From an uncultured Oscillospiraceae bacterium (GTDB lineage Bacteria; Bacillota; Clostridia; Oscillospirales; Oscillospiraceae), in NCBI GenBank assembly GCA_934655875.1, contig CAKUHB010000009.1:1-64000 (forward strand): a stretch of DNA of 64,000 bases, written 5' to 3'. Made by a program: the position numbers and the translations under genes. Positions within the stretch are counted from its first letter, which is position 1. The number at the start of each line of letters is the position of its first letter. Positions 31,807-51,388 of this stretch are shown here, piece after piece. The notes below the pieces were generated by a model. The model was not told where the DNA came from and did no database searches. It saw only the letters and a program-made list of their open reading frames with translations.

Positions 31807-32628
31807 ATGAGCAAAAAGCGTAAGATCCTTTCGCTTGTGGTTCTCGGCGTTCTGCTGCTCGCTTCGCTGGCGCTCAGTCTGCTGTGCGGCAGGAGCGGCG
31901 CGAAGGAATCGCTGCAAACGATCATGCGGGACGCAGTTCTGCATGAGGACAATAAAATCAGCCTGTTCGGGCTGATGGACGTGAATCCGGCCGTCGTTTC
32001 CGGATTGATCGTCACGGGCGTGCTGCTGGTTCTGGCAGCGCTGGCGCGGCTCTTTGTGATCCCGCGATTTCAGTATAAGCCCGGAAAGCTTCAGCTGCTA
32101 TTAGAGGAGCTTGTGACGTTCTTCCGGAACCTTGCACAGACGAACAGCCCGCACCGCAATGGATTTCTGGGCGCGTATCTGTTCGGCGCGGGCGTCTATG
32201 TATTCTTCGGTACGCTCTTTGAGCTGTTCGGCCTGCAGGCCGTGACGACGGCCGGCGGCTCCATTTCCCTTCCCGCGCCGCTGTCGGATATCAACGCAGC
32301 CGTCAGTGTCGGCTGCATGTCCTATCTTGTGATCCTTGGCGGCGGCATCGCGGCAAATAAGCTCCGGGGCGCTGCCAACACGCTCAAGGATTTCTCACTT
32401 CCCATCTCCATGAGCTTCCGTCTGTTCGGCGCGCTGCTGAGCGGTCTGCTTGTCACGGAGCTTGTTTATTATTCGCTCAGCCTGAGCTTCGTGCTGCCGG
32501 TGTTCGTGGGCGTCATGTTCACGCTCCTGCACGCGCTCATCCAGACGTATGTCCTGACGACGCTCGTGTCGATCTTCTACGGTGAGGTCACGGAGCCGCA
32601 TATCAAAAAAGCCAAGCAGAACGCTTGA
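31807..32628 (+). CDS. atpB: F0F1 ATP synthase subunit a
   Basis: 273 aa, polytopic, with the conserved arginine motif ISMSFRLFGALLSG. Confidence 0.9.
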   Translation: MSKKRKILSLVVLGVLLLASLALSLLCGRSGAKESLQTIMRDAVLHEDNKISLFGLMDVNPAVVSGLIVTGVLLVLAALARLFVIPRFQYKPGKLQLLLEELVTFFRNLAQTNSPHRNGFLGAYLFGAGVYVFFGTLFELFGLQAVTTAGGSISLPAPLSDINAAVSVGCMSYLVILGGGIAANKLRGAANTLKDFSLPISMSFRLFGALLSGLLVTELVYYSLSLSFVLPVFVGVMFTLLHALIQTYVLTTLVSIFYGEVTEPHIKKAKQNA

Positions 32629-38869: not shown

Positions 38870-41800
38870 TTATTGCAGCTTTTCCTGCACTGCGGCCGGG
38901 ATGGCGCAGTTGTCCTTCGTCAGGTCGCTGCGGAAGTCGAAGGAGGCGGAGATGGAGATCTGGGTATCGACGATGCTGACCTGTACGCTGCCGCCGACCG
39001 AGGCGCGCAGGGCCGTGATTTTCCCATCCTGCACATCCAACTCGATCGTGCCGGGCAGATACTGCACATTGAGCTTCTCCGCGTCCGGCGCGATGGCGAT
39101 GGCCGCCTGCCGCGTGCGTTCCTCGCTGAGGGTCAGCGTGTAGGTATAGCCGCTCTGGGTCTGCGTGCTGCTCGCTGCGCCCTCCAGGCACGCGCGATAG
39201 GCAATGTCCATGAGATCCGCGCAGCGCACGAGCGTCTGCTCGCTGGCCGTCGGCGTTTTGCCGTCCTTCGTCCAGACCTGCTCGCCCACGAAATAGAGCT
39301 CCAGCGCGCCCGCACGCAGGCAGCTGACCGTTCTTCCGTCCTGCACGGTGCGGAAGTAGTCGAGCGAGGTATCGAAGATCACGGGGCCGCAGTTGGCGCT
39401 GAGCTTTACGCGTGCGGCCAGCGGGTCGCGCTTGCCAAGCTCCGACACAGCGGACAGCACCCGCAGCAGATCCTCGGTCAGCTCCAGCTTCCCCTGATAG
39501 CCGCCGTTCGCCATGGCGTCGGTCACGGCCTTGGGGACGCTGTGCACGGTCTGCGCGTCCTCCTCGATCGTCAGCTCGGCCCAGACGGTCATCGACTGGG
39601 TCTGGCCGTCGCTTCCCGCGGCTTTTCCGCTGCCGGAAGCTTCGATGGAGCGGATCGCACCGTCCGTCACGTGCATGCACAGGTCGATGCTCTCGACTGC
39701 GGTCAGAGAATCGGCGATCGTCGGCGTCAGCAGCGACAACGCCTGCTCCGCGTCCGAACCATAGGCCGTCACGGAATAGACCTCTTCCCCGCTCTCGCGG
39801 GCATAGGTCACGTCGGTCGCGTTATACAGCTCGAGAATATGCTCGCCCAGTGTGGAATAATCCGGGAACAGGCCGCTCGTGCGGTACGCGCTGCCGTTTT
39901 CGAGATAGATCGAGCCGTCATAATAATACAGCTGCACGCCGTTTTCCTCGATGCAGAGGATCTGCTTGCCGTCGGCCTGCGTGCGGAACAGATGCGCGTC
40001 CGTTTGCAGTGTCTCGCTGCCGAGCTCCATCTGTACGGAAGCGCTCATGTCCAGCTCTTTTCTGGCGGACAGATTTTTGAGCAGCAGCAGGGCGTCCACG
40101 CTGCTCTTGAGACTGGCGCGGTAGATGAGGATACCCGCCGCAGCCAGAGCCACAACAGCCAGCGCGATGATCCACCAGAGTCTGTGCTTCTTTTTCTTTT
40201 CTGCGGACAGCAGCTGCTCCTCCTCGGAAGGCACCTGCCCTGCGCCCTCGGACATGACCGCGTTGTTGGCGTTCTGCTCGGCCTGCATGGCACTGCGCAG
40301 CGCCTGCATCTGGCGTCTTCTTGCCTTGCCGAGCTTGTGAATAAGGTGGATGATCAGCAGCACCAGCAGCGCCGCGAGCCCTGCCAGCACGATCCAGAGC
40401 CACCAGACCTGGAACGTCGACAGTGCCGCCAGCTGCACCGTCTGTCCTTCCGCCTGGAAGGACAGATAGCTGCCGACCTGCGTGGTCTTGACCTTTTTCC
40501 AGACGCCGTTTTCGTTCTGCAAATAGATATCCAGCTTCCCCTTCTGGCCGTCCGGCGCGCGGTAGCGGATGGTATGCGTCTGCGCGCCGTCGTCCGGCAG
40601 GCGCAGCTGCCACTGCTCGACAACGGACTTGGCAACATGCGCCGCAGGCGCATGGCCGTCGGAGATATTCTCAAAGTATTTCCGGATCGCTTCCGGGATG
40701 CTGGCGGAGATCTCGCCGAATGCGGACGGTGTGATCGCCTGCGGCTGCGCTTGCAGCCGGTCGGTGTCCGTATACGCGCCCTCGGCAAAGAAGACCGGGC
40801 GGCCGTCGCCGCGGGCCGCTTCGCTGGTCAGCGCATCCACACAGGTGTGGTATTCCGCCGTGACGGTGGTGTCAAAGCGGATGTTTTGCAGGCTCCGGAT
40901 ATCCCAGACGCCGTACTGGCCGTCCACCGCGGGGATCTCCGGATAGACGGAATCGTCAAGCGAGTCGCCATAGTCCACCGCGACGGTCTTCAGGATCTCG
41001 CCGTCTGCCACGAACTGCACCGTAAAGGTCTTGAACGCGTCCGGGAGCGCTTCGTTCTCCAGAAGCGACCGGTAGGAGACCGGCTCCGCCTGCGTGCTGA
41101 CGCTCACGCCGTCAAGACCCGCCAGCGTGTCAGAGACGAAGCGGTTGTCTGCGAATGTCCCGGCATTGCTGCCCGCGATCGCACCGGCGTACTGCTCGCA
41201 GTCCGTGATGGTCACGAGCGACGTGCAGCCGGTGACGGTGCTGCCGTCTCCTGTCAGGCTGTCCGTCACGCCGGAGCCGACGATGCCGCCAAGATACCGG
41301 CTGCCGGACAGCGCGCACTTGGCATAGCTGTCCTGCACCGCGGCGGCGCAGATCCCGGCAATGCCGCCGACATAGCTGCCGCTCTCACTGTTTACGCTGC
41401 CGTAGGCTTCGCAGCTGTCGATCAGGCCCAGATCCATCCGGCCGCAGATCGCCGCCGCGCAGTCCTTTTTGGCCGTGACGCTGCCGGTATTGACGCAGCT
41501 CTGCAAAACGGCCTTCAGCTCATACTGCTTGCGCTCCTGCGTGGAAAGGCTTTCGGAGACGTCGCTCTCGGGGTCGACGTCATATTCCAGCGCCATCGCG
41601 CCGGCAATGCCGCCGACGTTGCGGTCGGCCTGCACGCTGCCGCTGTTTTTGCAGCCGCGCAGCGCGCCGAGCGTCACCGCGTCCGCCGCATCCTGCGACG
41701 TATCCGAGATCACATCCTGATTCTCCACGGCGTCCATGGCATCGAACACCGTCTGGCTGATCTCATCGAGCTTGTCGCTGACGGCTTGCAGATCGCCGGT

Positions 41801-43285
41801 CAGCGTCGCAGAGAGGTTGGCTGTTTGGGAGCCGATGGCGCGCATCTGTGCGCCCATGCCGCTCAGTGCGGAAGCAAGCTCCGGCAAAGACGCGTCGGCG
41901 TTCATTTGCAGCGACGCGCTGATCGCGCCTGCGCCGTCTGTGCCGCCGGACAGCGACACATCCGAGGGATCCACATAGCCGCCCGCACCGACGCCCGCAC
42001 CAATGCCGTGCGAGGTATCGATCTCGATCGGGTGACTGGAAATGCTGACGCTGCTGTCCGTCCCCGCGCCCGCCGCAACTCCGGCGCCCGCAGTGGCTTC
42101 GCCGATCTCCAGCTCTGCGCCGCCCGAAATGCCGCCGTTTGCCAGTGCGCTGCCGTCAATCGTGGCGCTGGCCTTGAGGTTATTGGCCGCGTTCGACGCG
42201 CTGTCCAGATACGAGCCCATCCCGGCCAGCTGCGAACCGATGGCGCTGGCCGCGCCGCCGGCGTCTTCGGTTGCCTTGTCGGTCAGCGTTTTGAGCTCCT
42301 GCAGCTGCCGCTGGAGCTGATCTTTCGTGCTTTCCGAGACGATGATCGCCACATACGGCTCTGCCTGTCCGGCGATGCCGCCGACGTCCTTGCGGCCGAA
42401 GATCGTGCCGGTGTTGGTATTGTTGAGCAGATACCCGCTCGTGCTGCCGGCGATGCCGCCGACGTTATAGCCCACATGCTCATAGCCGACCGTGCCCTCG
42501 TTCGTGCAGCCGACGATCATGCCGGTGTTGCTCCCGGCGATGCCGCCGGTGGAGGTCGTCGTGAGAAGGGTCTGGGACTTGTTCAGATTGGCAAGATCGA
42601 AGGTCAGATCGATCTGAATGTCGGTCAGGTTCAGCGCGGCGTCCACGCTGTTGGGGTTGACGCTGCCGCTGTTGGTGCAGTGGCGGATCACGCCGCTGTT
42701 CCGTCCGGCGATGCCGCCGGTGGCGTTCGTCGCCTGCACCATGCCGGTAAACGTGCTGCTGATGATCTCGCCGGACAGCTCGTTGCAGCCGACAAGACCG
42801 CCGATCTGCGCGTCGCCCTGCACCATGCCGGTGAAGCTGCAGCAGACGATGCGGCCGTAGTTTTCGCCTGCAATGCCGCCGCAGACCGTCTGGTCGCCGC
42901 CCGCGGCGACAGAGCCTGTCACGTTCAGATTTTCCACCTGCCCGGAGGGCTGGATGGTGCCGAAGAGGCCGGCCGGGCTGTAGCTGCCTGTCAGATCAAA
43001 GTCGGAAATGGTATGCCCGCCGCCGTCAAACGTCCCGCCGAAGGACGCCGCAGGCGCGCAGTCCATGCCCGCCAGCGAAATATCCGTCCGCAGCACGACC
43101 GTCTTTCCCTGTGACCAGGTATCGAGCGCACAGTTTTTGACAAAGGCTTCAAAATCGCTTGCAGAATCGATATAAACGGTATCCGTGCCGTCCGCCGCGG
43201 CGGCGCACAGCACCGACGGCAGGCACAGACACAGAGCCAGAAGCAGCACCAGAAGGCGTCTGGCAAGAAGCGTTCTCTTATTCAT
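38870..43285 (-). CDS. Large surface protein with GLUG-type (GGIAG) repeats, two TM helices and a large C-terminal extracytoplasmic domain
   Basis: The start was trimmed to the ATG at 43285 (MNKRTLLARRLLVLLLALCLCLPSVLCAAAAD, a signal peptide, preceded by AAGGAGG). The Arg/Ser-rich 98-aa upstream extension of the ORF is judged spurious. Numerous GG(I/L)AG(S/R)N repeats are present, with TM helices (WWLWIVLAGLAALLVLLII and LWWIIALAVVALAAAGILIY). It is 1471 aa from the trimmed start. Confidence 0.7.
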   Translation of the reverse strand: MNKRTLLARRLLVLLLALCLCLPSVLCAAAADGTDTVYIDSASDFEAFVKNCALDTWSQGKTVVLRTDISLAGMDCAPAASFGGTFDGGGHTISDFDLTGSYSPAGLFGTIQPSGQVENLNVTGSVAAGGDQTVCGGIAGENYGRIVCCSFTGMVQGDAQIGGLVGCNELSGEIISSTFTGMVQATNATGGIAGRNSGVIRHCTNSGSVNPNSVDAALNLTDIQIDLTFDLANLNKSQTLLTTTSTGGIAGSNTGMIVGCTNEGTVGYEHVGYNVGGIAGSTSGYLLNNTNTGTIFGRKDVGGIAGQAEPYVAIIVSESTKDQLQRQLQELKTLTDKATEDAGGAASAIGSQLAGMGSYLDSASNAANNLKASATIDGSALANGGISGGAELEIGEATAGAGVAAGAGTDSSVSISSHPIEIDTSHGIGAGVGAGGYVDPSDVSLSGGTDGAGAISASLQMNADASLPELASALSGMGAQMRAIGSQTANLSATLTGDLQAVSDKLDEISQTVFDAMDAVENQDVISDTSQDAADAVTLGALRGCKNSGSVQADRNVGGIAGAMALEYDVDPESDVSESLSTQERKQYELKAVLQSCVNTGSVTAKKDCAAAICGRMDLGLIDSCEAYGSVNSESGSYVGGIAGICAAAVQDSYAKCALSGSRYLGGIVGSGVTDSLTGDGSTVTGCTSLVTITDCEQYAGAIAGSNAGTFADNRFVSDTLAGLDGVSVSTQAEPVSYRSLLENEALPDAFKTFTVQFVADGEILKTVAVDYGDSLDDSVYPEIPAVDGQYGVWDIRSLQNIRFDTTVTAEYHTCVDALTSEAARGDGRPVFFAEGAYTDTDRLQAQPQAITPSAFGEISASIPEAIRKYFENISDGHAPAAHVAKSVVEQWQLRLPDDGAQTHTIRYRAPDGQKGKLDIYLQNENGVWKKVKTTQVGSYLSFQAEGQTVQLAALSTFQVWWLWIVLAGLAALLVLLIIHLIHKLGKARRRQMQALRSAMQAEQNANNAVMSEGAGQVPSEEEQLLSAEKKKKHRLWWIIALAVVALAAAGILIYRASLKSSVDALLLLKNLSARKELDMSASVQMELGSETLQTDAHLFRTQADGKQILCIEENGVQLYYYDGSIYLENGSAYRTSGLFPDYSTLGEHILELYNATDVTYARESGEEVYSVTAYGSDAEQALSLLTPTIADSLTAVESIDLCMHVTDGAIRSIEASGSGKAAGSDGQTQSMTVWAELTIEEDAQTVHSVPKAVTDAMANGGYQGKLELTEDLLRVLSAVSELGKRDPLAARVKLSANCGPVIFDTSLDYFRTVQDGRTVSCLRAGALELYFVGEQVWTKDGKTPTASEQTLVRCADLMDIAYRACLEGAASSTQTQSGYTYTLTLSEERTRQAAIAIAPDAEKLNVQYLPGTIELDVQDGKITALRASVGGSVQVSIVDTQISISASFDFRSDLTKDNCAIPAAVQEKLQ

Positions 43286-45779
43286 CTGCCTGCGCCTCCT
43301 TTCCTGCATCCTCTGTATCCGGCGGCGTTTCGGGCGGAGCATCCGGTGCCTCCGGCTCCTCCTCTTCCGTGCCGGAGAGCAGGCTGACGTTGACATCGCC
43401 GTCCACGTACGCATGCACAACGCCGTGGATCTGGCCGCGGATCTCGCCGCGGACCATGCCGTCGATGCGGATGCGGCCGCTCGCCTGCCGCTGTGAAACA
43501 GCGGTCGGCATGTCGAAGGAGGTCTTATCGATGACCTTCTCGCCCAGCAGCAGGATCTGCGGGAGGATGAACATGACAATGATAATGGTAATGATCGTGC
43601 CGCGGCCCAGACTGTCGCCGATTCCGGCGATGGCCGCGTTGGAGGTCATCTGGCCGATCAGGATACCGGCAATGACCATCATAAGGCCCGAGGTGATGAT
43701 CGTCGGGAATGCGAGGTTCATCGTCTCGATGATCGCGTCCTTCTTTGGCATTTTGTCCTTAAATTCCATGAAGCGGCTGGTCGTCACGATGGCATAGTCG
43801 ATGTTCGCGCCCATCTGGATGGACGAGACAACCAGATAGCTGAGGAAGAACAGGGGGCTGTTCGTGATGGTGGGAATGCCGTAGTTGATCCAGATACTGC
43901 CCTGAATGACGAGGATCAGCAGGACCGGGATACCGGCCGATTTGAACGTGAACAGCAGGACCACAAGGACAATGAGGATGGACAGCACCGACACGACCAC
44001 GTTGTCGCGCGAGAACGACGCCTTGAAATCCTGCTCGGACGAGGAATCGCCCACGACATACACGTCGCCGTCCGGGTAATAGCTTTTCGTGACGAGCCGG
44101 ATCTGATCCAAGAACTCATACGTCTCGTCGCCGCCGACCGGCAGATTCAGATAGACCAGCATACGGCTGTAGCTGTCGGACTGCAGCTGCTTTTTCGCGT
44201 TCTGGATCTGCGTGTTGGCGTCCTCCAGCGTCTTGGTCATGTCATCGTCCAGAGAGACATAGCCCTGCTGCATCTCGTCGTAGAGGAACGAGAACATATC
44301 AATGAGCGGCACGGAATAGTTCGGCAGGCCACCGATGATCTTGCCGTAATTTTCGGTGTCTGCGGCATATGCCGCGTAGAGAAGCTCCGCGACCTCATAG
44401 TCGAGGTCGGTCAGCTCGGAGAACTGCCGCGGGTTCAGCGCGTCCGTCAGCATGTAGTCTCCCATGGCCTCCACATTGGAAAGGCCCAGCGTGGAATCGA
44501 CCTCGTCATAGGTCTCCAGCTCATCCAGAAGCTTCTTTTCCGACGGGTAATCCCCGGACGGGACCACGACGGCCACCATATTGGTCGAGCCGAAGGTCTC
44601 GTCGATCAGATTTTCCGCGATCTGCTGGTCGGACTGCTTCGCGGTCTTCAGATAGCTGAAGCCGTAGACATACGGGCAGTTCTGCGCGAAGATCATCGCG
44701 ACGATGATGACAGCAAGGAAGACCGGCGGGATGATCTTTTTGGTCGCATAGGCGAATCTGCCGACGAAGGGGATTTTCGGGACAAAGTTTTTGTGGCGCG
44801 TGGCGTCGATCTTCTTGCCGAACAGCATGAGAAGCCCCGGCATCAGGAAGAAGACGGAAAACAGCGAGAAGAAGATGGACTTGATCAGGCAGATACCGAG
44901 GTCAAAGCCCAGCCGGAACTCCATGAACAGCATCGCCACCAGACCGCCGATCGTCGTGAGACTGCTGCCGCAGATCTCCGGCACGGCCTTGCTGAGCGCG
45001 ACGATGACCGCCTCCCGGATGGGAAGCGTCTCATGCTCCTCCTTATAGCGGTTGCAGAGAATGATCGCATAGTCGACCGACAGCGCCAGCTGCAGAACGA
45101 TCGTGACGGAGTTCGACACGAACGAAATCGTGCCCAGCAGGAAGTTCGTGCCCATGTTCAGAAGCGCCGCCGCAACGAACGTGATCAGCAGCACCGGCAC
45201 CTCGGCATACGTCTGCGAGGTCAGAATCAGAACCGACACGACGACGATCGCCACGATGATGACGATGACGCCGATCTCCTGCGCGAGGACCTTGGACGCC
45301 GTATCGCCGAAGGTCGCGGAGACGTACATATCATAGTCTGCAAGACGCTCCTCCACCTCGTTCAGGACGGTCTCGCAGCGCTCGTCGTCCTCGGAATAGT
45401 CGAAGGTGATATCGTACAGCGCGGAAGCGTTCGTATAGTGCGCATCCGTGTCGTCAAACGTCACGCCCTGCACGCCGTCGATGTCCGCGAGCTGCTCGCG
45501 GATCGCTTCCGCTTCATCGTAGGAGACGTTGACGAGCATGATCTGCGCCGTGCCGAACGTCGTAAATTCGTCCTCCATAAGCTGCAGGCCCCGATACGTC
45601 TCGGAGTCCTTCGGCAGGTAGGCGGAAAGCTGATTTTCCACCTGCACCCAGTTGCGCGAGAAAACCGAAAAGATCAGCCCAATTGCAACGATCAGGAAGA
45701 TCAGGTTTCGCTTATCAACGATAAAGCTGGCAAATTTGTACATAAAGCCTTCATTCTGGTTCTTTGCATTCTGGCTCAT
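43278..45779 (-). CDS. MMPL/RND-superfamily membrane transporter
   Basis: 833 aa with two hydrophobic 6-TM bundles, each followed by a large loop (MMPL topology), and an acidic P/E-rich C-terminal tail. Its stop overlaps the downstream gene start (ATGAATAA). Confidence 0.8.
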   Translation of the reverse strand: MSQNAKNQNEGFMYKFASFIVDKRNLIFLIVAIGLIFSVFSRNWVQVENQLSAYLPKDSETYRGLQLMEDEFTTFGTAQIMLVNVSYDEAEAIREQLADIDGVQGVTFDDTDAHYTNASALYDITFDYSEDDERCETVLNEVEERLADYDMYVSATFGDTASKVLAQEIGVIVIIVAIVVVSVLILTSQTYAEVPVLLITFVAAALLNMGTNFLLGTISFVSNSVTIVLQLALSVDYAIILCNRYKEEHETLPIREAVIVALSKAVPEICGSSLTTIGGLVAMLFMEFRLGFDLGICLIKSIFFSLFSVFFLMPGLLMLFGKKIDATRHKNFVPKIPFVGRFAYATKKIIPPVFLAVIIVAMIFAQNCPYVYGFSYLKTAKQSDQQIAENLIDETFGSTNMVAVVVPSGDYPSEKKLLDELETYDEVDSTLGLSNVEAMGDYMLTDALNPRQFSELTDLDYEVAELLYAAYAADTENYGKIIGGLPNYSVPLIDMFSFLYDEMQQGYVSLDDDMTKTLEDANTQIQNAKKQLQSDSYSRMLVYLNLPVGGDETYEFLDQIRLVTKSYYPDGDVYVVGDSSSEQDFKASFSRDNVVVSVLSILIVLVVLLFTFKSAGIPVLLILVIQGSIWINYGIPTITNSPLFFLSYLVVSSIQMGANIDYAIVTTSRFMEFKDKMPKKDAIIETMNLAFPTIITSGLMMVIAGILIGQMTSNAAIAGIGDSLGRGTIITIIIVMFILPQILLLGEKVIDKTSFDMPTAVSQRQASGRIRIDGMVRGEIRGQIHGVVHAYVDGDVNVSLLSGTEEEEPEAPDAPPETPPDTEDAGKEAQADE

Positions 45780-45989
45780 ACGTCACACTCCCGTTGTTCT
45801 GCTCCTTAAAAATTCAATCCAGTTTAGCACAAAATTACTTCATTTGGCAATATGCAAACCGCCGAAGTTGACCAAGCAAAATCGTCACTTCTCCCAGCAG
45901 ATCAACGCCCCGCCGAGCACAAAAACGAGGGCCTTTATGCAAAGCATAAAAGCCCTCTCACCCCACACACTCCGCAGCGAACCGCCCGC

Positions 45990-46390
45990 TCCAGCCGCTT
46001 ATGGATCAACTAAAAACAAAATCGCAATCCAGCGTCAGCGATTGCGATTTTGAAGCGAAGAAACGCCCCGTCCGGCTAAGAAGCCTCGCCGCAAGGCGGG
46101 GATTCGTGCCGTAAGGGGCGTTTCTGCGCTGTGTTGTGCGAATACGATGATCAATTCCCAAGTTGGCAGCACAAAACTGTGACCCAGCGAAGCGGTCACA
46201 GTTTTGAAGCGAGGAGCAGCGGAGCAAGTGAGAGATGACTTTTTATGCAGCGCATAAAAAGTCGTCGCGAACTTGCGCAGTTCGCGACGAGCTGTGTCAT
46301 GTGAACACTATGGATCAACTATCAGATTTGAAGCACAAACCCGCAATCCAGCGAAGCGATTGCGGGTTTGAACGAAGAAAGACCTTTGCT
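45990..46390. repeat. Cluster of three paralogous ~70-bp hairpin repeat units, plus additional GC-rich hairpins
   Basis: Each of the three units has ATGGATCAACT / ATGATCAATT, then a 12-bp stem with conserved loop CAGCG(A/T)(A/C)GCG flanked by an A-tract and TTTT, then GAAGCGAAG. The unit starts are 46001, ~46147 and 46310, with hairpins at 46017-46052, 46172-46206 and 46335-46370. The stems differ but keep complementarity (compensatory changes). There are also a nested 10-bp stem gaaacgcccc…ggggcgtttc (46060-46124) and hairpins at ~46230 and 46262-46286. Confidence 0.55.
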
Positions 46391-46443
46391 GTCGAGATGA
46401 ACGCGCTTGCGCGGTCATCTGACATACAAAGGTCATTTCTGAG

Positions 46444-46530
46444 TGGTGCCGGTGGCCGGACTCGAACCGGCACGCCATCGCTGGCGGTGGATTTTGAGTC
46501 CACTACGTCTACCAATTCCATCACACCGGC
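46444..46530 (-). tRNA. tRNA-Leu (anticodon CAA), CCA-encoded
   Basis: The reverse complement gccggtgtgatggaattggtagacgtagtggactCAAaatccaccgccagcgatggcgtgccggttcgagtccggccaccggcacca has a 7-bp acceptor stem, a D-arm with GG, the anticodon loop ctCAAaa, a long variable arm and a T-loop GGTTCGAGTCC. Confidence 0.88.
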
Positions 46531-46588
46531 GTTGCTGGCAGTTATTATACAGCATGGAACGTGGAAATTCAAGACAAACTTCTCTTGA

Positions 46589-47230
46589 TTATTCCGCTTC
46601 TGCCTTCATCTGTTCGTTGAGGTGCTTGCACAGCAGCGCCAGAGACGCGGCCATGTTCTCGTTCTGCACCAGAATATGCTCCGGGACGTTCAGATGCTTC
46701 GGAGCAAAGTTCCAGATGGCAAGAATGCCGTTGCTGATGAGAAGATCGCACACGGCCTGCGCCTGCTCGGCGGGAACAGTGATGATGCCGATCTTGATCT
46801 TGTCGCGCTGGCAGATCTCGCCCAGCCGCGACAGGTGCATGATGGGCTTGCCGCTCTTGTAAGTGCCGATGAGCGCGTCGTTCTCGTCGAACGCCGCAAC
46901 GATATTGAGGCCGTATTCCGCGAAGCCGGAATAGCCCAGCAGCGCGCGGCCAAGCTTGCCCGCGCCGATGAGGACGGCGTCGTTGGAGTTGCCGTAGCCG
47001 AGGAACTGCTCGATATCCGTGATGAGCGCGGCGCGGTTATAGCCGATCTTCGGTCGGCCGCCGCTCGAGACGAGCGCCAGATCCTTCCGCACCTGCACCT
47101 CGCCCATATGCAGACCTGCTGCCAGCGCCGTCGCGGAAATATTCGCGCCGCTGTTTTCCGGCAGTCCCTTGAGATAGGACAGATAGGTCGGCAGACGTTT
47201 GAGTGTTGCACGGGAGATTTCTTTTTCCAT
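46589..47230 (-). CDS. rex: Redox-sensing transcriptional repressor Rex
   Basis: 213 aa with an N-terminal winged HTH (ISRATLKRLPTYLSYL) and a Rossmann NADH-binding domain (AVLIGAGKLGRALLGY). Confidence 0.85.
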   Translation of the reverse strand: MEKEISRATLKRLPTYLSYLKGLPENSGANISATALAAGLHMGEVQVRKDLALVSSGGRPKIGYNRAALITDIEQFLGYGNSNDAVLIGAGKLGRALLGYSGFAEYGLNIVAAFDENDALIGTYKSGKPIMHLSRLGEICQRDKIKIGIITVPAEQAQAVCDLLISNGILAIWNFAPKHLNVPEHILVQNENMAASLALLCKHLNEQMKAEAE

Positions 47231-47249
47231 GGGCTCATGTCCTCTTTCC

Positions 47250-47274
47250 GATATCGATAATTTGTATCGATATC
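47250..47274. promoter_or_regulatory. Perfect inverted repeat GATATCGATA-atttg-TATCGATATC in the rex 5' region / sigE 3' flank
   Basis: 10-bp arms seen directly in the sequence. It could be a Rex or other regulator operator, or a weak AT-rich terminator for sigE. Confidence 0.3.
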
Positions 47275-47325
47275 TTTATACCATAACTGTTTTTCATTTT
47301 CAAGCCCTAATTTCTATGTTCTTAC

Positions 47326-48033
47326 TCAGCTGTAGATCTGCCGGGAGATCTCCCGCCGCAAGCGGAGCATAATGCGTTTTTCCAGCCGGGAAATATACGA
47401 CTGGGAAATCCCCATCAGGTCGGCGACCTCCTTCTGCGTCTTCTCCTGCCGCCCGCCAAGCCCGAAGCGCATGGAGACGATCTGCTTTTCCCGCTCCGGC
47501 AGCCGCAGCAGCGCCTGCCGCAGGAGCTGATGGTCCACATCGTCCTCCAGAGGGCGCATGACCACGTCGCTGTCGGTGCCGAGCACATCGGACAGCAGCA
47601 GCTCATTGCCGTCCCAGTCCGTATTGATCGGTTCGTCGAGCGAGACCTCCGTCTTCTGATTTGCGATCTTCCGGATGTGCATTAAGATCTCATTTTCAAT
47701 GCAGCGCGAGGAATACGTCGCCAGCTTGATGTTCCGGTCCGGCCGGAAGGTTCCCACGGCCTTGATGAGACCAATGGTGCCGATGGAGATGAGATCCTCC
47801 AGATTGACCCCTGTGTTTTCAAAGCGCCGCGCGATATAAACGACCAGACGCAGATTGTGCTCGATCAGCGTCTGCCGGGCGGCTTCGTCGCCCTCCTGCA
47901 ATCGCTGCAATGCCTGCCGCTCCTGCTCCTGTGTGAGCGGCGCAGGCAGCACGTCGCTGCCGCCGATGTACATGATTTTTCCCGGCTGCAAAAGCCCCAG
48001 CTTCTGTAAGATCTGTTCCAGCTTCAAGATCAT
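47326..48033 (-). CDS. sigE: Sporulation sigma factor E (pro-sigma-E)
   Basis: 235 aa. The pro-sequence followed by [22 protein letters not shown]…[42 protein letters not shown]…[19 protein letters not shown] matches B. subtilis SigE almost motif-for-motif. ATGA overlap with spoIIGA. Confidence 0.88.
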
Positions 48034-48878
48034 CCGTCTCCTCCTGTCAGTGCGTCATAATTTCCACCATCCGAAACGGGCGTCGGGGAAAACGCCGCAA
48101 GGCAGCTTCTGCGCCGCCCATTCGCCGCAATTGTCTCGCACCGCAGCGCCAGCAAAAGCCCCGCCTGCGTGCCCACGCTCCGGTAGGAGAGCAGCCGCAG
48201 CGGCAGCTGCGGATCCTTTGCATGCAGCCGCAGCATCAGCGCTGCCGGATCCCGCAGCTCCGCCGCGCGGATGGCTTCTCCGGGCAAAAGCACCTGCAAG
48301 GCCCCTGCTTCCGCCACGAGAGCACGCTCGCCCGTGACGGGATCGCAGAGCGTGCAGCCGGTGTCCCGCAGCGCGCGGATCGGCACGCTGGCTGCCCCAT
48401 ATGCCAGCCGGAGCGGCACGATCCCTCCGCCGCCGTGGCGCGCCGTACAGGCAAAGACCGTGTAGCACAGCAGATACGCAAGCCCCGCCAGCAGCAGAAG
48501 GCCGAGAAGACTCACCGCGTAATATGCTCCGCCCGGCAGAACCAGCACGCCTGTCCCGAAGATCTGCGCCGCAGCCAGCGCCATGCCGCCGAACGCGCAC
48601 ACCGCCGCCAGGAACAAAAGTCCCGCGCGCAGCGTATGCCGTCCGACCCCGTAGGCCAGCAGCAGCATTGCCGCAAGGCTTGCCAGTTTCATGGGCAGCG
48701 CCTGCAAAAACGCGAGCCGCGGCGCGAGCGCCGCCGCAGCATACAGGCCTCCGAACGCCGCTGCGAGCGCGAACCGCAGCCGCAGCAGCCGCCCGCCGCC
48801 GAGCTTTGCTCCGCAGATGAGCAGCAGATAGTCCACAGCCGCGTTCAGCAAAAACGCTTCATCGGCATATACCGTCAT
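48030..48878 (-). CDS. spoIIGA: Sigma-E processing peptidase SpoIIGA
   Basis: The start was trimmed to the ATG at 48878 ([20 protein letters not shown]…), preceded by GAGGGGGA. The multi-TM N-terminal half and the aspartic-protease motif [16 protein letters not shown] (compare DSGNQLYDPLT in the B. subtilis protein) are present. 282 aa. Confidence 0.8.
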
Positions 48879-48994
48879 CCGCAGTCCCCCTCGTCCGTTC
48901 CGATGGACAAAGCTTACACCCGGCGGGCAGAAAAAAGCGGTCGCAATTCCATGCGGAATTGCGGCCGTTCGTTCGTCAGGTTTTCCTTGCAATG

Positions 48995-49186
48995 TCAAAT
49001 CGGCTTCCCCTCACGCAGAATCTGGCGGATGCTCTTTTCCGCCTTGCTGCGCGGGATCATCAGCTCATGCCCGCAGCCGTCGCAGCGCAGGCGGAAATCC
49101 ATTCCGCTGCGCAGCACGTGCCACTGCTTTGAGCCGCAGGGATGCTCCTTTTTCATGACAAGAATATCGCCGACCTGTACGTCCAT
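48995..49186 (-). CDS. Small conserved zinc-ribbon protein (DUF951-like)
   Basis: 63 aa from the ATG at 49186, preceded by AAGGAG: MDVQVGDILVMKKEHPCGSKQWHVLRSGMDFRLRCDGCGHELMIPRSKAEKSIRQIL. The upstream 10 codons of the ORF-track frame are judged an extension. Confidence 0.5.
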   Translation of the reverse strand: MDVQVGDILVMKKEHPCGSKQWHVLRSGMDFRLRCDGCGHELMIPRSKAEKSIRQILREGKPI

Positions 49187-49245
49187 ACTGCATCTCCTTC
49201 TTTCCCCCGTCTGCATATATTGGAGGAGAAACGGGGGAATGATCT

Positions 49246-50139
49246 ATGATTTGTTATCTGCCGGAAGGGCTGCATCCGCAGCCGGAGGGGTATACCAAAG
49301 AGGAACTGCGGCTCGCCATGGCGCAGCGCCGCGTTTTGCAGGCCACAGCCGTCCGGTGCGACGAGCGGCACGATCTGCACGTGCAGCTCGGCTGCTGCGA
49401 GGGGCTCATCCCGAGAGCGGAGGCCGCGCGCGGCATTACCGGCGGCCAGACGCGGGACATTGCCATTTTATCGCGGGTCGGCCGCCCGGTCTGCTTTCAC
49501 GTGACCGGCTTTCTTTCGGATGGCCGCGCGGTCTTATCACGCCGCAGTGCACAGGAGCAGGCGCTGGATCACATCCTGCAAAGCTGCCGCCCCGGCGATA
49601 TTTTGCCCGCGGTCGTGACGGGGCTTGCGCCCTTCGGTGCGTTCTGCGATATCGGCTGCGGCGCGCCGGCGCTTCTCGGGCTGCGGGAGATCTGCGTCAG
49701 CCGCATCCAGCATCCGTCCGACTGCCTGCATATCGGCCAGCAGCTCTATGCTGTGCTTCGCTCGCTGGATCCTGTCCGGCGGCGCGTACAGCTGACGCAA
49801 AGAGAGCTGCTCGGCACGTGGGAGGAGAACGCCGCGCGCTTCCGTCCCGGCCAGACCGTTGCGGGCGTTGTCCGCGCCCGGCAGCCATATGGCGTTTTTA
49901 TCTCGCTCACGCCGAACCTCTCGGGTCTGGCCGACCCGGACGATACGCTGCGGCCCGGCCAGCCGGTCTGCGTCTTCATCAAGGCCATCCAGCCCGAAAC
50001 GCTCAAGATCAAGCTGTGCGTCCTGCATACGCTCGATTCCCTGCCCGCGCAGCCGCTCCGGTACACGAAAACGGAGGGCCATCTCGACACCTGGCGCTAC
50101 GGAAGCCCGGCGCTGGCAAAGATCCTGACTATTTTTTGA
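49246..50139 (+). CDS. S1-like RNA-binding domain protein (two S1-type OB folds)
   Basis: 297 aa with two segments of S1 pattern: GDILPAVVTGLAPFGAFCDIGCGAPALLGLREI and GQTVAGVVRARQPYGVFISLTPNLSGLA. Confidence 0.5.
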   Translation: MICYLPEGLHPQPEGYTKEELRLAMAQRRVLQATAVRCDERHDLHVQLGCCEGLIPRAEAARGITGGQTRDIAILSRVGRPVCFHVTGFLSDGRAVLSRRSAQEQALDHILQSCRPGDILPAVVTGLAPFGAFCDIGCGAPALLGLREICVSRIQHPSDCLHIGQQLYAVLRSLDPVRRRVQLTQRELLGTWEENAARFRPGQTVAGVVRARQPYGVFISLTPNLSGLADPDDTLRPGQPVCVFIKAIQPETLKIKLCVLHTLDSLPAQPLRYTKTEGHLDTWRYGSPALAKILTIF

Positions 50140-51388
50140 TCTCGTCCCAATAGCGCTTGGCCGCCTGCTCGGTCTTATTATCGCCGTATACATAGTACGT
50201 CCGGTCTTTGATCGCGTCCGGCAAATACTGCTGCCGGACCCAGTGGCCGGGATAATTGTGCGGATACAGATAGCCCTGCTCGCGCTCAAAGCCCGTGCCG
50301 TCCGCGTGGACGTTTTGCAGCTCCCGCGGCACAGGGCCGGTCCGGCCCGCCTTGACGTCTGCCATGGCGGCATCAATCGCCATGCAGCCGGAGTTGGATT
50401 TCGGCGCGGTCGCGAGCAGAAGCACCGCGTCTGCCAGCGGCAGCCGCGCTTCCGGCAGGCCGAGCTGCAAGGCGCTGTCGACACAGGCCTTGACAATGGG
50501 GATGGCCTGCGGATAGGCAAGGCCGATGTCCTCTGCCGCGGAGCAGAGGATCCGGCGGCAGGCCGACGGCAGGTCGCCCGCTTCGAGAAAGCGCGCCAGA
50601 TAGTGCACCGCCGCGTCCGGGTCGGAGCCGCGGATGGACTTCATGAGCGCGGAAAGATCGTCATAATGATCGTCTCCGGCCTTGTCGTAGCGCATGGCCG
50701 AGCGCTGCGACACCTGCTTCGCGTCCGCCAGCGTCAGGCGCAGGACACCGTTTTCCGGCCTTGTGGCGGCGTAAAGGAACTCGATGGCGTTCAGGGCCTT
50801 TCGGATATCGCCGCCGCAGGCCTGCGCGATATGGCCGGTCACACCCGGCTCCGGCAGAATGGTCACGCTGTCGCGTGCTTCGAGGTAATTGAGCGCCCGC
50901 TCGACCGCACGCTGCGCTTCTTCCTTCTCCACGGGCTTGAACTCAAAGACCGTCGAGCGCGACAGGATGGCGTTATAGACATAGAAATACGGATTTTCCG
51001 TTGTAGATGCGATCAGTGTGATCTTGCCGTTTTCGATGTATTCCAGCAGCGTCTGCTGCTGCTTTTTGTTGAAATACTGGATCTCGTCGAGGTAGAGAAG
51101 CACGCCGTTCGGCGCGAGGAACGTGTCGAGTTGGGCGTAGATCTCCTTGATGTCGGCGGAGGACGCCGTGGTCGCGTTGAGCTTGCATAGCTTCCGCTGC
51201 GTCTTTTTCGCGATCAGGTTCGCGACCGTCGTCTTGCCCGTGCCGGACGGCCCGTAGAAGATGAGATTCGGCACGCTGCCGGATTCGATGATACGGCGCA
51301 GCAGGCCGTTTTCGCCCAGAATATGCTGCTGTCCGCAGACGTCTGAAAGTTCCTGCGGACGAAGCGCATCCGCGAGGGGCTGGTACAT
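50129..51388 (-). CDS. rarA: Replication-associated recombination protein A (AAA+ ATPase)
   Basis: 419 aa with Walker A GPSGTGKTT, and the MgsA/RarA N-terminal (ALRPQELSDVCGQQHILG) and C-terminal domains. Confidence 0.85.
   Translation of the reverse strand: MYQPLADALRPQELSDVCGQQHILGENGLLRRIIESGSVPNLIFYGPSGTGKTTVANLIAKKTQRKLCKLNATTASSADIKEIYAQLDTFLAPNGVLLYLDEIQYFNKKQQQTLLEYIENGKITLIASTTENPYFYVYNAILSRSTVFEFKPVEKEEAQRAVERALNYLEARDSVTILPEPGVTGHIAQACGGDIRKALNAIEFLYAATRPENGVLRLTLADAKQVSQRSAMRYDKAGDDHYDDLSALMKSIRGSDPDAAVHYLARFLEAGDLPSACRRILCSAAEDIGLAYPQAIPIVKACVDSALQLGLPEARLPLADAVLLLATAPKSNSGCMAIDAAMADVKAGRTGPVPRELQNVHADGTGFEREQGYLYPHNYPGHWVRQQYLPDAIKDRTYYVYGDNKTEQAAKRYWDEIKK

Follow-up and report, generated by a model that had tools for sequence, protein, structure and literature searches.

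A widespread REP/BOX-like palindromic repeat of Oscillospiraceae gut bacteria found behind tRNA genes

Introduction

The REP/BIME (PU) elements of enterobacteria are short palindromes dispersed between genes, mostly just 3′ of them, that form mosaics with other motifs and fold into hairpins in both DNA and RNA. They are thought to serve as barriers at mRNA 3′ ends and to be moved by an enzyme supplied in trans, the RAYT transposases, and it is their stem and a 5′ GT(A/G)G that are conserved. The BOX elements of Streptococcus pneumoniae (boxA-boxB(n)-boxC) are intergenic, non-coding, strongly folding and modular, with modules that are conserved in sequence, that vary in number and order, and that show no particular association with tRNA 3′ ends or attachment sites. 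In the attC arrays of integrons, short cassettes that share one orientation and vary in order carry hairpins whose sequence changes on a kept structure. A perfect GC-containing stem flanked by A’s and T’s is the mark of intrinsic terminators, which have neither a loop sequence nor an exact stem length in common. Rolling-circle/HUH origins present a conserved loop on stems of fixed length that are free in sequence.

Two further systems bear on the locus described here. Tandem accretion has been documented for ICE and IME remnants at tRNA genes; the resulting CIMEs are non-autonomous, have attachment-like ends, stack at the tRNA 3′ end and can be entered at either junction (PMC5704250), and they carry a duplicated tRNA 3′ segment at the junction. 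Mini-hairpin DNA of the form d(GCGNAGC)/d(GCGNNAGC) is used in the G4 origin, in ssiA and in the early promoters of N4 (PMC13037366), in each case as a single functional site of a phage or plasmid replicon.

Here we describe hairpin A, a widespread palindromic repeat of Oscillospiraceae gut bacteria, which is REP/BOX-like, has several traits uncommon for such elements, and is not a new kind of system. No description of the family was found in the literature, and it appears to be uncatalogued. We analysed it starting from a 64-kb stretch of DNA from an uncultured Oscillospiraceae bacterium (the window), for which an initial annotation had noted three hairpin units beside a tRNA-Leu gene.

Results

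The array is non-coding, occupies positions 45990–46443 and lies between tRNA-Leu(CAA) (46444–46530, minus strand) and the start of an MMPL-family gene (43278–45779, minus strand). Homologues of Rex, sigma-E and SpoIIGA are encoded on the far side of the tRNA gene from the array. A promoter-like site for the tRNA gene, TTGAAT-17-TATAAT, which is a consensus match only, is located at 46544–46572 on the minus strand, and a terminator-like hairpin (45927–45957, minus strand; GAGGGC...GCCCTC followed by GTTTTTGTG) stands distal to the array and upstream of the promoter-like site of the MMPL gene at 45821–45850.

Within the array are three direct copies of a hairpin, spaced 154 and 164 nt apart, which we term A1 (46017–46052, arms 46017–46029/46040–46052), A2 (46172–46206, arms 46172–46184/46194–46206) and A3 (46336–46370, arms 46336–46348/46358–46370), all defined on the minus strand. 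Their stems differ and their loops are near-identical. On the tRNA strand, A1 has the stem CAAAATCGCAATC/GATTGCGATTTTG and the 10-nt loop GCTGACGCTG, A2 the stem CAAAACTGTGACC/GGTCACAGTTTTG and A3 the stem CAAACCCGCAATC/GATTGCGGGTTTG, the last two sharing the loop GCTTCGCTG; read on the plus strand, the loops are CAGCGTCAGC in A1 (10 nt) and CAGCGAAGC in A2 and A3 (9 nt each). The initial annotation had placed the three units correctly and had described their stems as different yet perfectly complementary, which is the case at 13 of 13 positions in each. The stems are, however, 13 bp long in all three copies and not 12 bp as it had proposed, and what it had taken for a separate A-tract and T-tract are the outer pairs of the stem itself (CAAA/TTTG).

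The hairpins are real and statistically solid. On either strand, the 454-nt region gives a folding z score of −12. The individual hairpins reach z values of about −5 to −6.5, and nearest-neighbor parameters predict that their two strands fold about equally well. Among the 14 distinct perfect hairpins with a stem of at least 12 bp in the window, 5 fall within 46017–46370, an interval in which Markov-random sequence would be expected to hold ∼0.05. A covariance model built from 57 distinct relatives in other genomes, R1, scores A3, A2 and A1 at 59, 51.5 and 47.1 bits, respectively (E of 1e-16 to 1e-12), and finds nothing else above 21 bits in the 64 kb except the reverse strands of A1–A3. Searches with loop, head and tail patterns as well as with the covariance model revealed no other copy of hairpin A in the window, and the exact matches to the loop at 31860 and 40817 are in coding sequence and are not flanked by stems.

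The repeats are best delimited as units on the minus strand, where they are stacked head-to-tail and the order is tRNA, unit 3, unit 2, unit 1, the terminator-like hairpin and the promoter-like site of the MMPL gene. The units (∼150–165 bp) follow one module plan, consisting of a terminator-like hairpin B, a pyrimidine tract, hairpin A and a 27-nt head that ends in CACA. They start with (G)CTCAGAAA or GCTCGTCG. The head GTTGATCCATAGTGTTCACATGACACA, intact or degenerate, closes units 3 and 2, and unit 1 has a partial head. Unit 3 (46293–46443, 151 nt) begins directly after the tRNA CCA and contains the long hairpin B3 (46378–46437) followed by TTTCTTCGTT, then A3, a tail, and the head GTTGATCCATAGTGTTCACATGACACA at 46293–46319. 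In unit 2 (46130–46292, 163 nt) two hairpins (46262–46290 and 46237–46263) precede A2. The first of these is a consensus terminator with a CTTTTTAT tail; the pyrimidine tract before A2 is CTCCTCGCTT and the degenerate head ends in CAACACA. Unit 1 (45990–46129, distal end approximate) is composed of the long hairpin B1 (46054–46130) with TTTCTTCGCTT, A1, and the partial head at 46000–46012.

Beyond hairpin A, the tract and the head, the three units have little in common. The hairpins at 46054–46130, 46237–46263, 46262–46290 and 46378–46437, which bear out the suggestion of additional hairpins around the repeats, are unrelated to each other in sequence. The shared head and tail motifs proposed for every unit hold in part: the head motif TATGGATCAACTA is found unchanged at 46000 and 46309, with a degenerate version, GATGATCAATTC, at about 46147, and the tail motif GAAGCGAAGAAA is exact only behind unit 1, with 3 mismatches in unit 2 and GAACGAAGAAAG in its place in unit 3. 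Two other interpretations of the unit sequence were rejected. Small ORFs behind a Shine-Dalgarno-like purine tract on the plus strand have the wrong spacing, the only ORF running antisense through the tRNA gene, and a tRNA-like T-arm formed by the loop or the head would be missing the conserved A58-equivalent and the stems.

The window contains hairpin A at a single locus, but the hairpin belongs to a dispersed family with at least 57 different stems in MAGs of Oscillospiraceae and other Clostridia. An exact 17-mer spanning the loop and closing pairs, a query that biases which copies are sampled, matched at least 119 stretches of species-representative genomes and 14 viral contigs. In the Oscillospiraceae and Clostridia matches the arms extend over 10–15 complementary bp in many different sequences; matches in other phyla show only the 4 bp that the pattern imposes and are due to chance. 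In the MAG CAKTVN01, the exact 17-mer is present on at least 8 contigs, with at least 13 copies of the hairpin in the about 55 kb sampled, and R1 gives about 84 strong matches in 480 kb of related loci. No Rfam family matches the hairpin or the units: for the region 44000–48000 the tRNA alone was matched at E up to 10, and in seven related loci the only matches were a T-box and a 6S RNA located elsewhere in those loci. Likewise, blastn against annotated phage and plasmid collections found no DNA similar to the array. Of the options that the initial annotation had offered, a REP/BOX-like repeat fits best, the family being dispersed, modular and intergenic in many Oscillospiraceae genomes.

On the strand of the upstream gene, the family consensus consists of a pyrimidine tract (CTCCTCT, TTTCTTCGTT), a 13-bp arm, the loop GCTTCGCTG and the complementary arm, with GCT(N1-2)CGCTG (9–10 nt, tRNA strand) as the general form of the loop. 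Within the arm, the outer (T/C)CAAA and the inner AATC/AAAC/GACC are semiconserved and the 5-nt middle is nearly free. Among the 57–58 distinct copies in the alignment, which were picked for at least 11 of 13 complementary positions, 714 of 754 stem pairs are Watson-Crick; the rest comprise 5 G·T pairs and 35 mismatches of other kinds, such that G·T is no commoner than the other mismatches. In all, 95.8% of cells are paired, two-sided changes number 231 compared with 5 one-sided, and 13 of 15 pairs covary; none of 500 shuffles matched the observed score, and slid controls collapse. A strain with an array otherwise near-identical to that in the window (L006) has an exact 9-nt inversion of the A2 loop.

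The presence of only Watson-Crick pairs, together with the clean inversion of the loop between strains, means that the compensatory changes, which had been read as a signature of selection on secondary structure, are not safe evidence of selection at the RNA level. Intrastrand template switching between the arms is an established mechanism for quasipalindromes, and both observations are as expected from maintenance of a palindrome at the DNA level or from folding on both strands. A constraint on both strands would forbid G·U pairs. Thus, RNA-type compensatory evolution is not likely to be the cause of the perfect arms.

On the strand opposite to the tRNA, the loop reads CA-GCG(N1-2)AGC. In the window, this takes the form CA-GCGAAGC twice and CA-GCGTCAGC once, the latter, from A1, being a form of GCGNNAGC. 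Across the family, the variants of the loop complement are GCGAAGC, GCGGAGC, GCGTAGC, GCGCAGC, GCGTCAGC, GCGCCAGC and GCGGAAGC. In sequence, all of them match the mini-hairpin consensus GCGNAGC/GCGNNAGC (PMC13037366), with the G and A kept and N varying, and in four copies the first pair of the mini-stem is changed from GC to AU. Unlike the known mini-hairpin sites, hairpin A is a dispersed chromosomal family.

Hairpin A shows a strict polarity relative to tRNA genes. All 33 hairpins that have a tRNA gene within 1 kb share the strand of that gene; 28 of these are downstream of the nearest tRNA, and the remaining 5 are in a Gln-Lys spacer, downstream of tRNA-Gln. Nine tRNA species are represented (Leu-CAA, Leu-TAA, Gln-TTG, Gln-CTG, Glu, Gly, Arg, Ser and Cys). 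The loop starts 85–89 nt past the tRNA end or, in a second class, 99–103 nt past it, and the interval between the tRNA and hairpin A (72–88 nt) holds a long hairpin of unrelated sequence and a pyrimidine tract. Scanning a metagenome collection for the 3′ end of tRNA-Leu yielded 110 usable loci from many taxa, 8 of which have A hairpins, and all 15 hairpins at these loci share the same polarity. Several copies are positioned 7–20 nt past stop codons, and the upstream CDS is on the hairpin strand in 47 of 60 cases, a crude figure from a heuristic gene caller.

Terminator-like traits are partial. A pyrimidine tract lies 5′ of the hairpin in 44 of 58 copies, and a T-rich tail (at least 5 T in the next 9 nt) follows 13 of 58 copies on the sense strand vs. 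1 of 58 on the antisense strand. In the window, A1 is followed by the U-rich TTTTGTTTTT, and the tails of A2 and A3 are weak (TTTTGTGCT and TTTGTGCTT). A scan with a terminator consensus selects 46262–46290 and 45927–45957 and not the full A hairpins. One copy of the family is in the tRNA-Gln/tRNA-Lys spacer of a five-tRNA cluster, where it is accompanied by one to four ∼42-nt hairpin repeats. This placement inside a tRNA operon, together with a U-rich tail in only 22% of copies, argues that hairpin A is not a strong terminator in general. The proposal of a multiterminator insulator next to the tRNA is partly borne out in that there are at least two consensus-terminator matches on the tRNA strand, but the best of these are nonrepeated B hairpins and not members of the family.

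Comparison of contigs that encode an identical Rex protein shows how the locus differs between strains. Six agree with the window. In two, divergence sets in precisely at the tRNA CCA, and one of these carries the ArdA gene of a conjugative-type element. Another keeps the first long hairpin and then has a different A-type hairpin followed by the C terminus of a tyrosine integrase, the full gene of which (402 aa, in locus L126) ends ∼50 nt from the A variant, and a further strain has a different unit altogether. Single units also occur apart from the arrangement in the window. Unit 3 follows tRNA-Leu in L054, L123, L143, L220 and L273 and occupies the second position in L091 and L276, and the B1 module is combined with a different A hairpin in L220, L273 and L276. 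L091 has the order tRNA, 2′, 3, where 2′ is a 164-nt homologue of unit 2. In L220 and L273 the tRNA and unit 3 are followed by a mosaic in which B1 and another A hairpin are joined to the distal half of unit 2. The array of L276 is that of L220 with unit 2′ added precisely at the boundary of the tRNA and unit 3. Unit 2′ is present in L276 and L091 and absent from L220, L273 and the window; its junction with the tRNA is CA|CTCAG, and it aligns as a single clean block with CA on both flanks.

Larger elements use the same junctions. In L004 and L008 an ICE-like element starts directly behind the tRNA CCA, and in L016 a related one starts directly behind the CACA of a head; the head motif is repeated in inverted form at the left end of the ICE-like element (GAACAC..GGATCAA). 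CACCA|CTCAG is the junction of a phage that encodes a large serine recombinase, a tyrosine-integrase prophage adjoins an A variant, and two viral contigs lacking hairpin A terminate in a head. The junctions with the tRNA CCA and with the heads that the ICE-like element, the two prophage types and the units share mark a much-used attachment point. No displaced tRNA-Leu 3′ end of the kind expected for a classical attR was found in the window, and among proteins encoded beside the hairpins, clustering of neighboring ORFs returned locus-specific synteny groups only. Integrases that are 97% identical flank different A hairpins and 71%-identical relatives flank none, which indicates that hairpin A is not the core site of that integrase.

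Together, these comparisons show that the cassettes are acquired, deleted and rearranged as intact blocks whose junctions lie exactly behind CAC(C)A, and that the non-coding units behave like miniature cis-mobilizable elements accreted in tandem. As with CIMEs, a discrete block with identical ends is present in some strains and absent from others, and larger elements join the same tRNA and head junctions; the units likewise have attachment-like ends, are non-autonomous, are stacked at the tRNA 3′ end and can be entered at either junction. They differ from CIMEs in being only ∼150–165 bp and geneless and in having a junction identity of 2–5 nt (CA or CAC(C)A) in place of a duplicated tRNA 3′ segment. 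A circle of ∼160 bp would be an unusually small substrate for recombination, and a block could also be gained or lost if the short CAC(C)A ends recombine or allow slippage.

The comparison with the other known systems is similarly mixed. Hairpin A shares with REP/BIME elements the dispersed intergenic location, mostly just 3′ of genes, the mosaic arrangement with other motifs and the capacity to fold in DNA and RNA. In contrast to REPs, it is the loop and closing pairs that are conserved in hairpin A, with the middle of the stem free; the signature GT(A/G)G is absent from the foot of the palindrome, which is instead (T/C)CAAA after a pyrimidine tract. Moreover, the copies in the window are direct rather than arranged as inverted doublets, the window and the sampled loci yielded no RAYT, and the host clade is Clostridia. 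With BOX elements the units have in common their modularity, variable module number and order, intergenic location, non-coding nature and strong folding, but the sequences are unrelated and the BOX modules have no comparable link with tRNA 3′ ends or attachment sites.

The likeness to integron cassettes, that is, short oriented cassettes in variable order with hairpins that vary on a kept structure, does not extend to the sites themselves. Hairpin A has neither R″/R′ (RYYYAAC/GTTRRRY) boxes nor extrahelical bases, the cassettes are non-coding, the unit boundary is ∼45 nt from the hairpin rather than inside it, and no IntI or attI was found. An attC-like reading was therefore rejected, given the perfect stems, the lack of R boxes on inspection of the sequence, the distant boundary, the absence of hybrid arms and the variability of the arms. 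Finally, hairpin A resembles intrinsic terminators in its perfect GC-containing stem flanked by A’s and T’s, in the U-rich tail of A1 and in its position behind tRNA genes and stop codons; it departs from them in that most copies have no U-tract, that one copy lies within a tRNA operon spacer, and that its copies share both loop sequence and stem length.

Discussion

The explanation that we favor, with a confidence that is evenly balanced, is that miniature integrative cassettes at a tRNA attachment hotspot carry hairpin A, a REP/BIME/BOX-like repeat that probably acts as a polar hairpin barrier. The cassettes would be miniature or decayed integrative elements (CIME-like) that accreted by site-specific recombination at the hotspot, each bringing its own terminator, hairpin B, and a secondary attachment site, the head. 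The B hairpins may be the primary terminators, and hairpin A would form a strand-polar structural barrier on transcripts leaving the tRNA or the upstream gene. It could back up termination, provide insulation or stop 3′ exonucleases, in the manner of REP and BOX elements. Such a function is suggested by the position, the polarity and the partial terminator features of the hairpins. Palindrome processes at the DNA level, such as intrastrand template switching, could keep the arms perfect, as could a requirement that both strands fold, and the conserved loop may provide for sequence-specific recognition by some factor.

A passive barrier leaves the conserved loop and the fixed 13-bp stem unexplained, and these point to sequence-specific recognition. 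The main rival is accordingly that hairpin A is chiefly a single-stranded DNA recognition site for a structure-specific enzyme encoded in trans, with any effect on transcription being secondary, a reading that we consider possible though rather unlikely. The candidates would be an HUH/Y1 transposase (of the RAYT or IS200/IS605 kind), a Rep protein or relaxase, or a recombinase, which would read the loop on the extruded hairpin and through which repeats and cassettes would spread. This would account for a 9-nt loop that is conserved on stems free in sequence but fixed in length, as at rolling-circle/HUH origins, for the Watson-Crick pairs and the lack of tolerance for G·T, and for a loop complement that corresponds to the mini-hairpin motif of single-strand initiation sites and N4 hairpin promoters; strand polarity could then reflect the direction of replication, and the oriented insertion 3′ of CAC(C)A without evident target duplication and the association of the hairpins with mobile-element ends would also fit. 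However, no candidate enzyme gene recurs near the hairpins, and phmmer searches with approximate IS608 TnpA and Escherichia coli RAYT queries, a weak test, found no IS200/RAYT-like match among 7320 ORFs from the window and the 8-kb samples of the loci. In addition, the unit boundary is ∼45 nt from the hairpin and not at its foot or loop, sites with hybrid arms are not seen, and the 97%-identical integrases adjoin quite different A hairpins, their relatives adjoining none. A more specific form of this idea, which we regard as a long shot, is that the ∼160-bp geneless units are the smallest site-specific mobile cassettes and are moved by a trans-acting enzyme that reads the folded single-stranded hairpin A. 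Insertion would then occur in one orientation 3′ of CA, either at tRNA CCA ends or at the head of the previous unit, and the enzyme would recognize the conserved mini-hairpin loop, making this a REP/RAYT-like or integron-like system specific to Oscillospiraceae, one that assembles polymorphic arrays of non-coding DNA behind tRNA genes. If hairpin A were instead a double-stranded core site of the lox/FRT/dif type at which cassettes are exchanged, its 13-9-13 geometry of inverted arms and an asymmetric spacer, the conservation of that spacer, which strand exchange would require, the tyrosine integrase gene ending ∼50 nt from an A variant and the shuffled cassette arrays would all be in keeping. 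But the arms vary between sites and yet stay mutually complementary, which a recombinase dimer does not need, and exchange at the spacer should yield hybrid, noncomplementary arms, in place of which 95% of pairs are Watson-Crick. The junctions of units and elements are, moreover, after CAC(C)A and outside the spacer, and relatives of the integrase occur without any A. The arm variability, the absence of hybrid arms and the location of the junctions largely refute this reading, and we judge it very improbable.

The remaining alternatives concern RNA and simple duplication. A tRNA-linked small or cis-regulatory RNA, composed of B and A and freed by processing of the tRNA 3′ end, would be compatible with a start immediately at the tRNA 3′ end, with two hairpins and a fairly constant 72–88 nt before A, with a polarity that is always sense to the upstream gene, and with the strong folding of each hairpin (z about −5 to −6.5). 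Against it, Rfam gave no match at E up to 10, G·U pairs are almost absent despite 231 double changes, the loop orientation is flipped in one strain and the loop is reversed relative to the pyrimidine tract in some copies, and the B sequences are unrelated between tRNA species. The B hairpins with U-rich tails also come before A, so that little transcription should reach it. We therefore think such an RNA decidedly improbable, and the small-RNA family put forward in the initial annotation fares no better, there being no promoter for each unit and the units sitting behind terminators. The possibility that the array is a local tandem duplication of one terminator and not part of a wider family, which the same annotation would have preferred had there been only three copies and no expression or conservation, draws on three direct copies at 154/164-nt spacing in one intergenic region and none elsewhere in the window. 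It is barely credible given that dozens of copies with different stems are spread over numerous genomes, at a range of tRNA and protein-gene loci, and that single units occur separately and in other orders elsewhere, which refutes local duplication; nor do the units share more than A, the tract and the head, their B hairpins being unrelated.

Oscillospiraceae are abundant and mostly uncultured gut bacteria whose non-coding repertoire is barely described, and a clade-wide palindromic repeat that combines a conserved loop with free stems and a strict polarity is a useful marker for assembly breaks, strain typing sites and integration hotspots. Hairpin A also offers a clean natural case in which perfect covariation alone does not show selection at the RNA level, which matters for automated discovery of ncRNAs. 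If active mobility of the cassettes is borne out, they would illustrate how a tRNA attachment site is rebuilt and insulated with every integration, and they might reveal a new hairpin-reading enzyme.

The Loop of Hairpin A2 Is Inverted in a Related Strain

Strain comparison identified L006:4025-4059 as the equivalent of hairpin A2 (window 46172-46206), one of the window copies of hairpin A, a palindromic repeat with a 13-bp stem and a conserved loop. In this one strain the 9-nt loop is an exact inversion, GCTTCGCTG to CAGCGAAGC, while the flanking 458 nt are ~99% identical. Given such near-identical surroundings, the loop difference is a flip-flop polymorphism at the center of the palindrome. 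Many loci (e.g., L010, L063, and L079) also carry a pyrimidine tract (CTCCTCT, CCTCCTTT) in the 5′ flank of hairpin A, which in the window lies at 46207-46216 and 46053-46063. This tract resembles an anti-Shine-Dalgarno string; its complement is, by sequence, a consensus ribosome-binding site, without a start codon at suitable spacing.

Mobile Elements and Repeat Arrays Adjoin the tRNA Genes

In strains encoding an identical Rex protein, the tRNA-Leu CCA is the exact integration point of an ICE-like element (L004:3788-6642, where it carries an ArdA gene, and L008:3788-4173). The insertion point of a related element (L016:150-372) comes after the head of unit 3, the 27-nt motif that closes this hairpin A-containing cassette; at the left end of this element is a terminator-like hairpin that includes the head motif in inverted form. 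At L013:1-1824, a phage gene encoding a large serine recombinase abuts CACCA|CTCAGAAATG with its 3′ end; this junction mimics the tRNA-Leu end, and its host side is unit 3.

In the Gly-Arg-His-Gln-Lys tRNA cluster (L011, L012, L017-L020, L057, and L130), a single A hairpin lies in the spacer between tRNA-Gln and tRNA-Lys. After it come ~42-nt hairpin repeats, GCGAATC..GATTCGC GTCTGAGTATTTGTTGGGT, whose number varies (0 to 3 or more), and prophages are integrated just past tRNA-Lys.

Another dispersed noncoding element of ~170-190 nt, with the pattern ...ATTTTTCGCGAGGCACATGTCCTCGCAAAAAATG...TTCGCGCCTGCGGGCGCGAACTCTGCGAGGC, adjoins A hairpins in several Oscillospiraceae MAGs (L034:6600-6750, L046, L068:340-470, L094, L113, L124, and L139:7800-7940). 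It has no match in Rfam and is not present in the window.

Elsewhere in the window, long ORFs of 1569 aa (38870-43579, minus strand) and 643 aa (48222-50153, plus strand) have no match in Pfam; the former is overlapped by an opposite-strand ORF of nearly equal length, such that either strand could be coding.

Hairpin A1 Resembles Part of tRNA-Leu

Over window 46026-46046, the plus strand of hairpin A1 matches the tRNA-Leu sense sequence at 46473-46493 in 18 of 21 positions; the tRNA stretch takes in the 3′ side of the anticodon stem plus the variable arm. The resemblance may be due to chance or may be a trace of the hairpin's origin.
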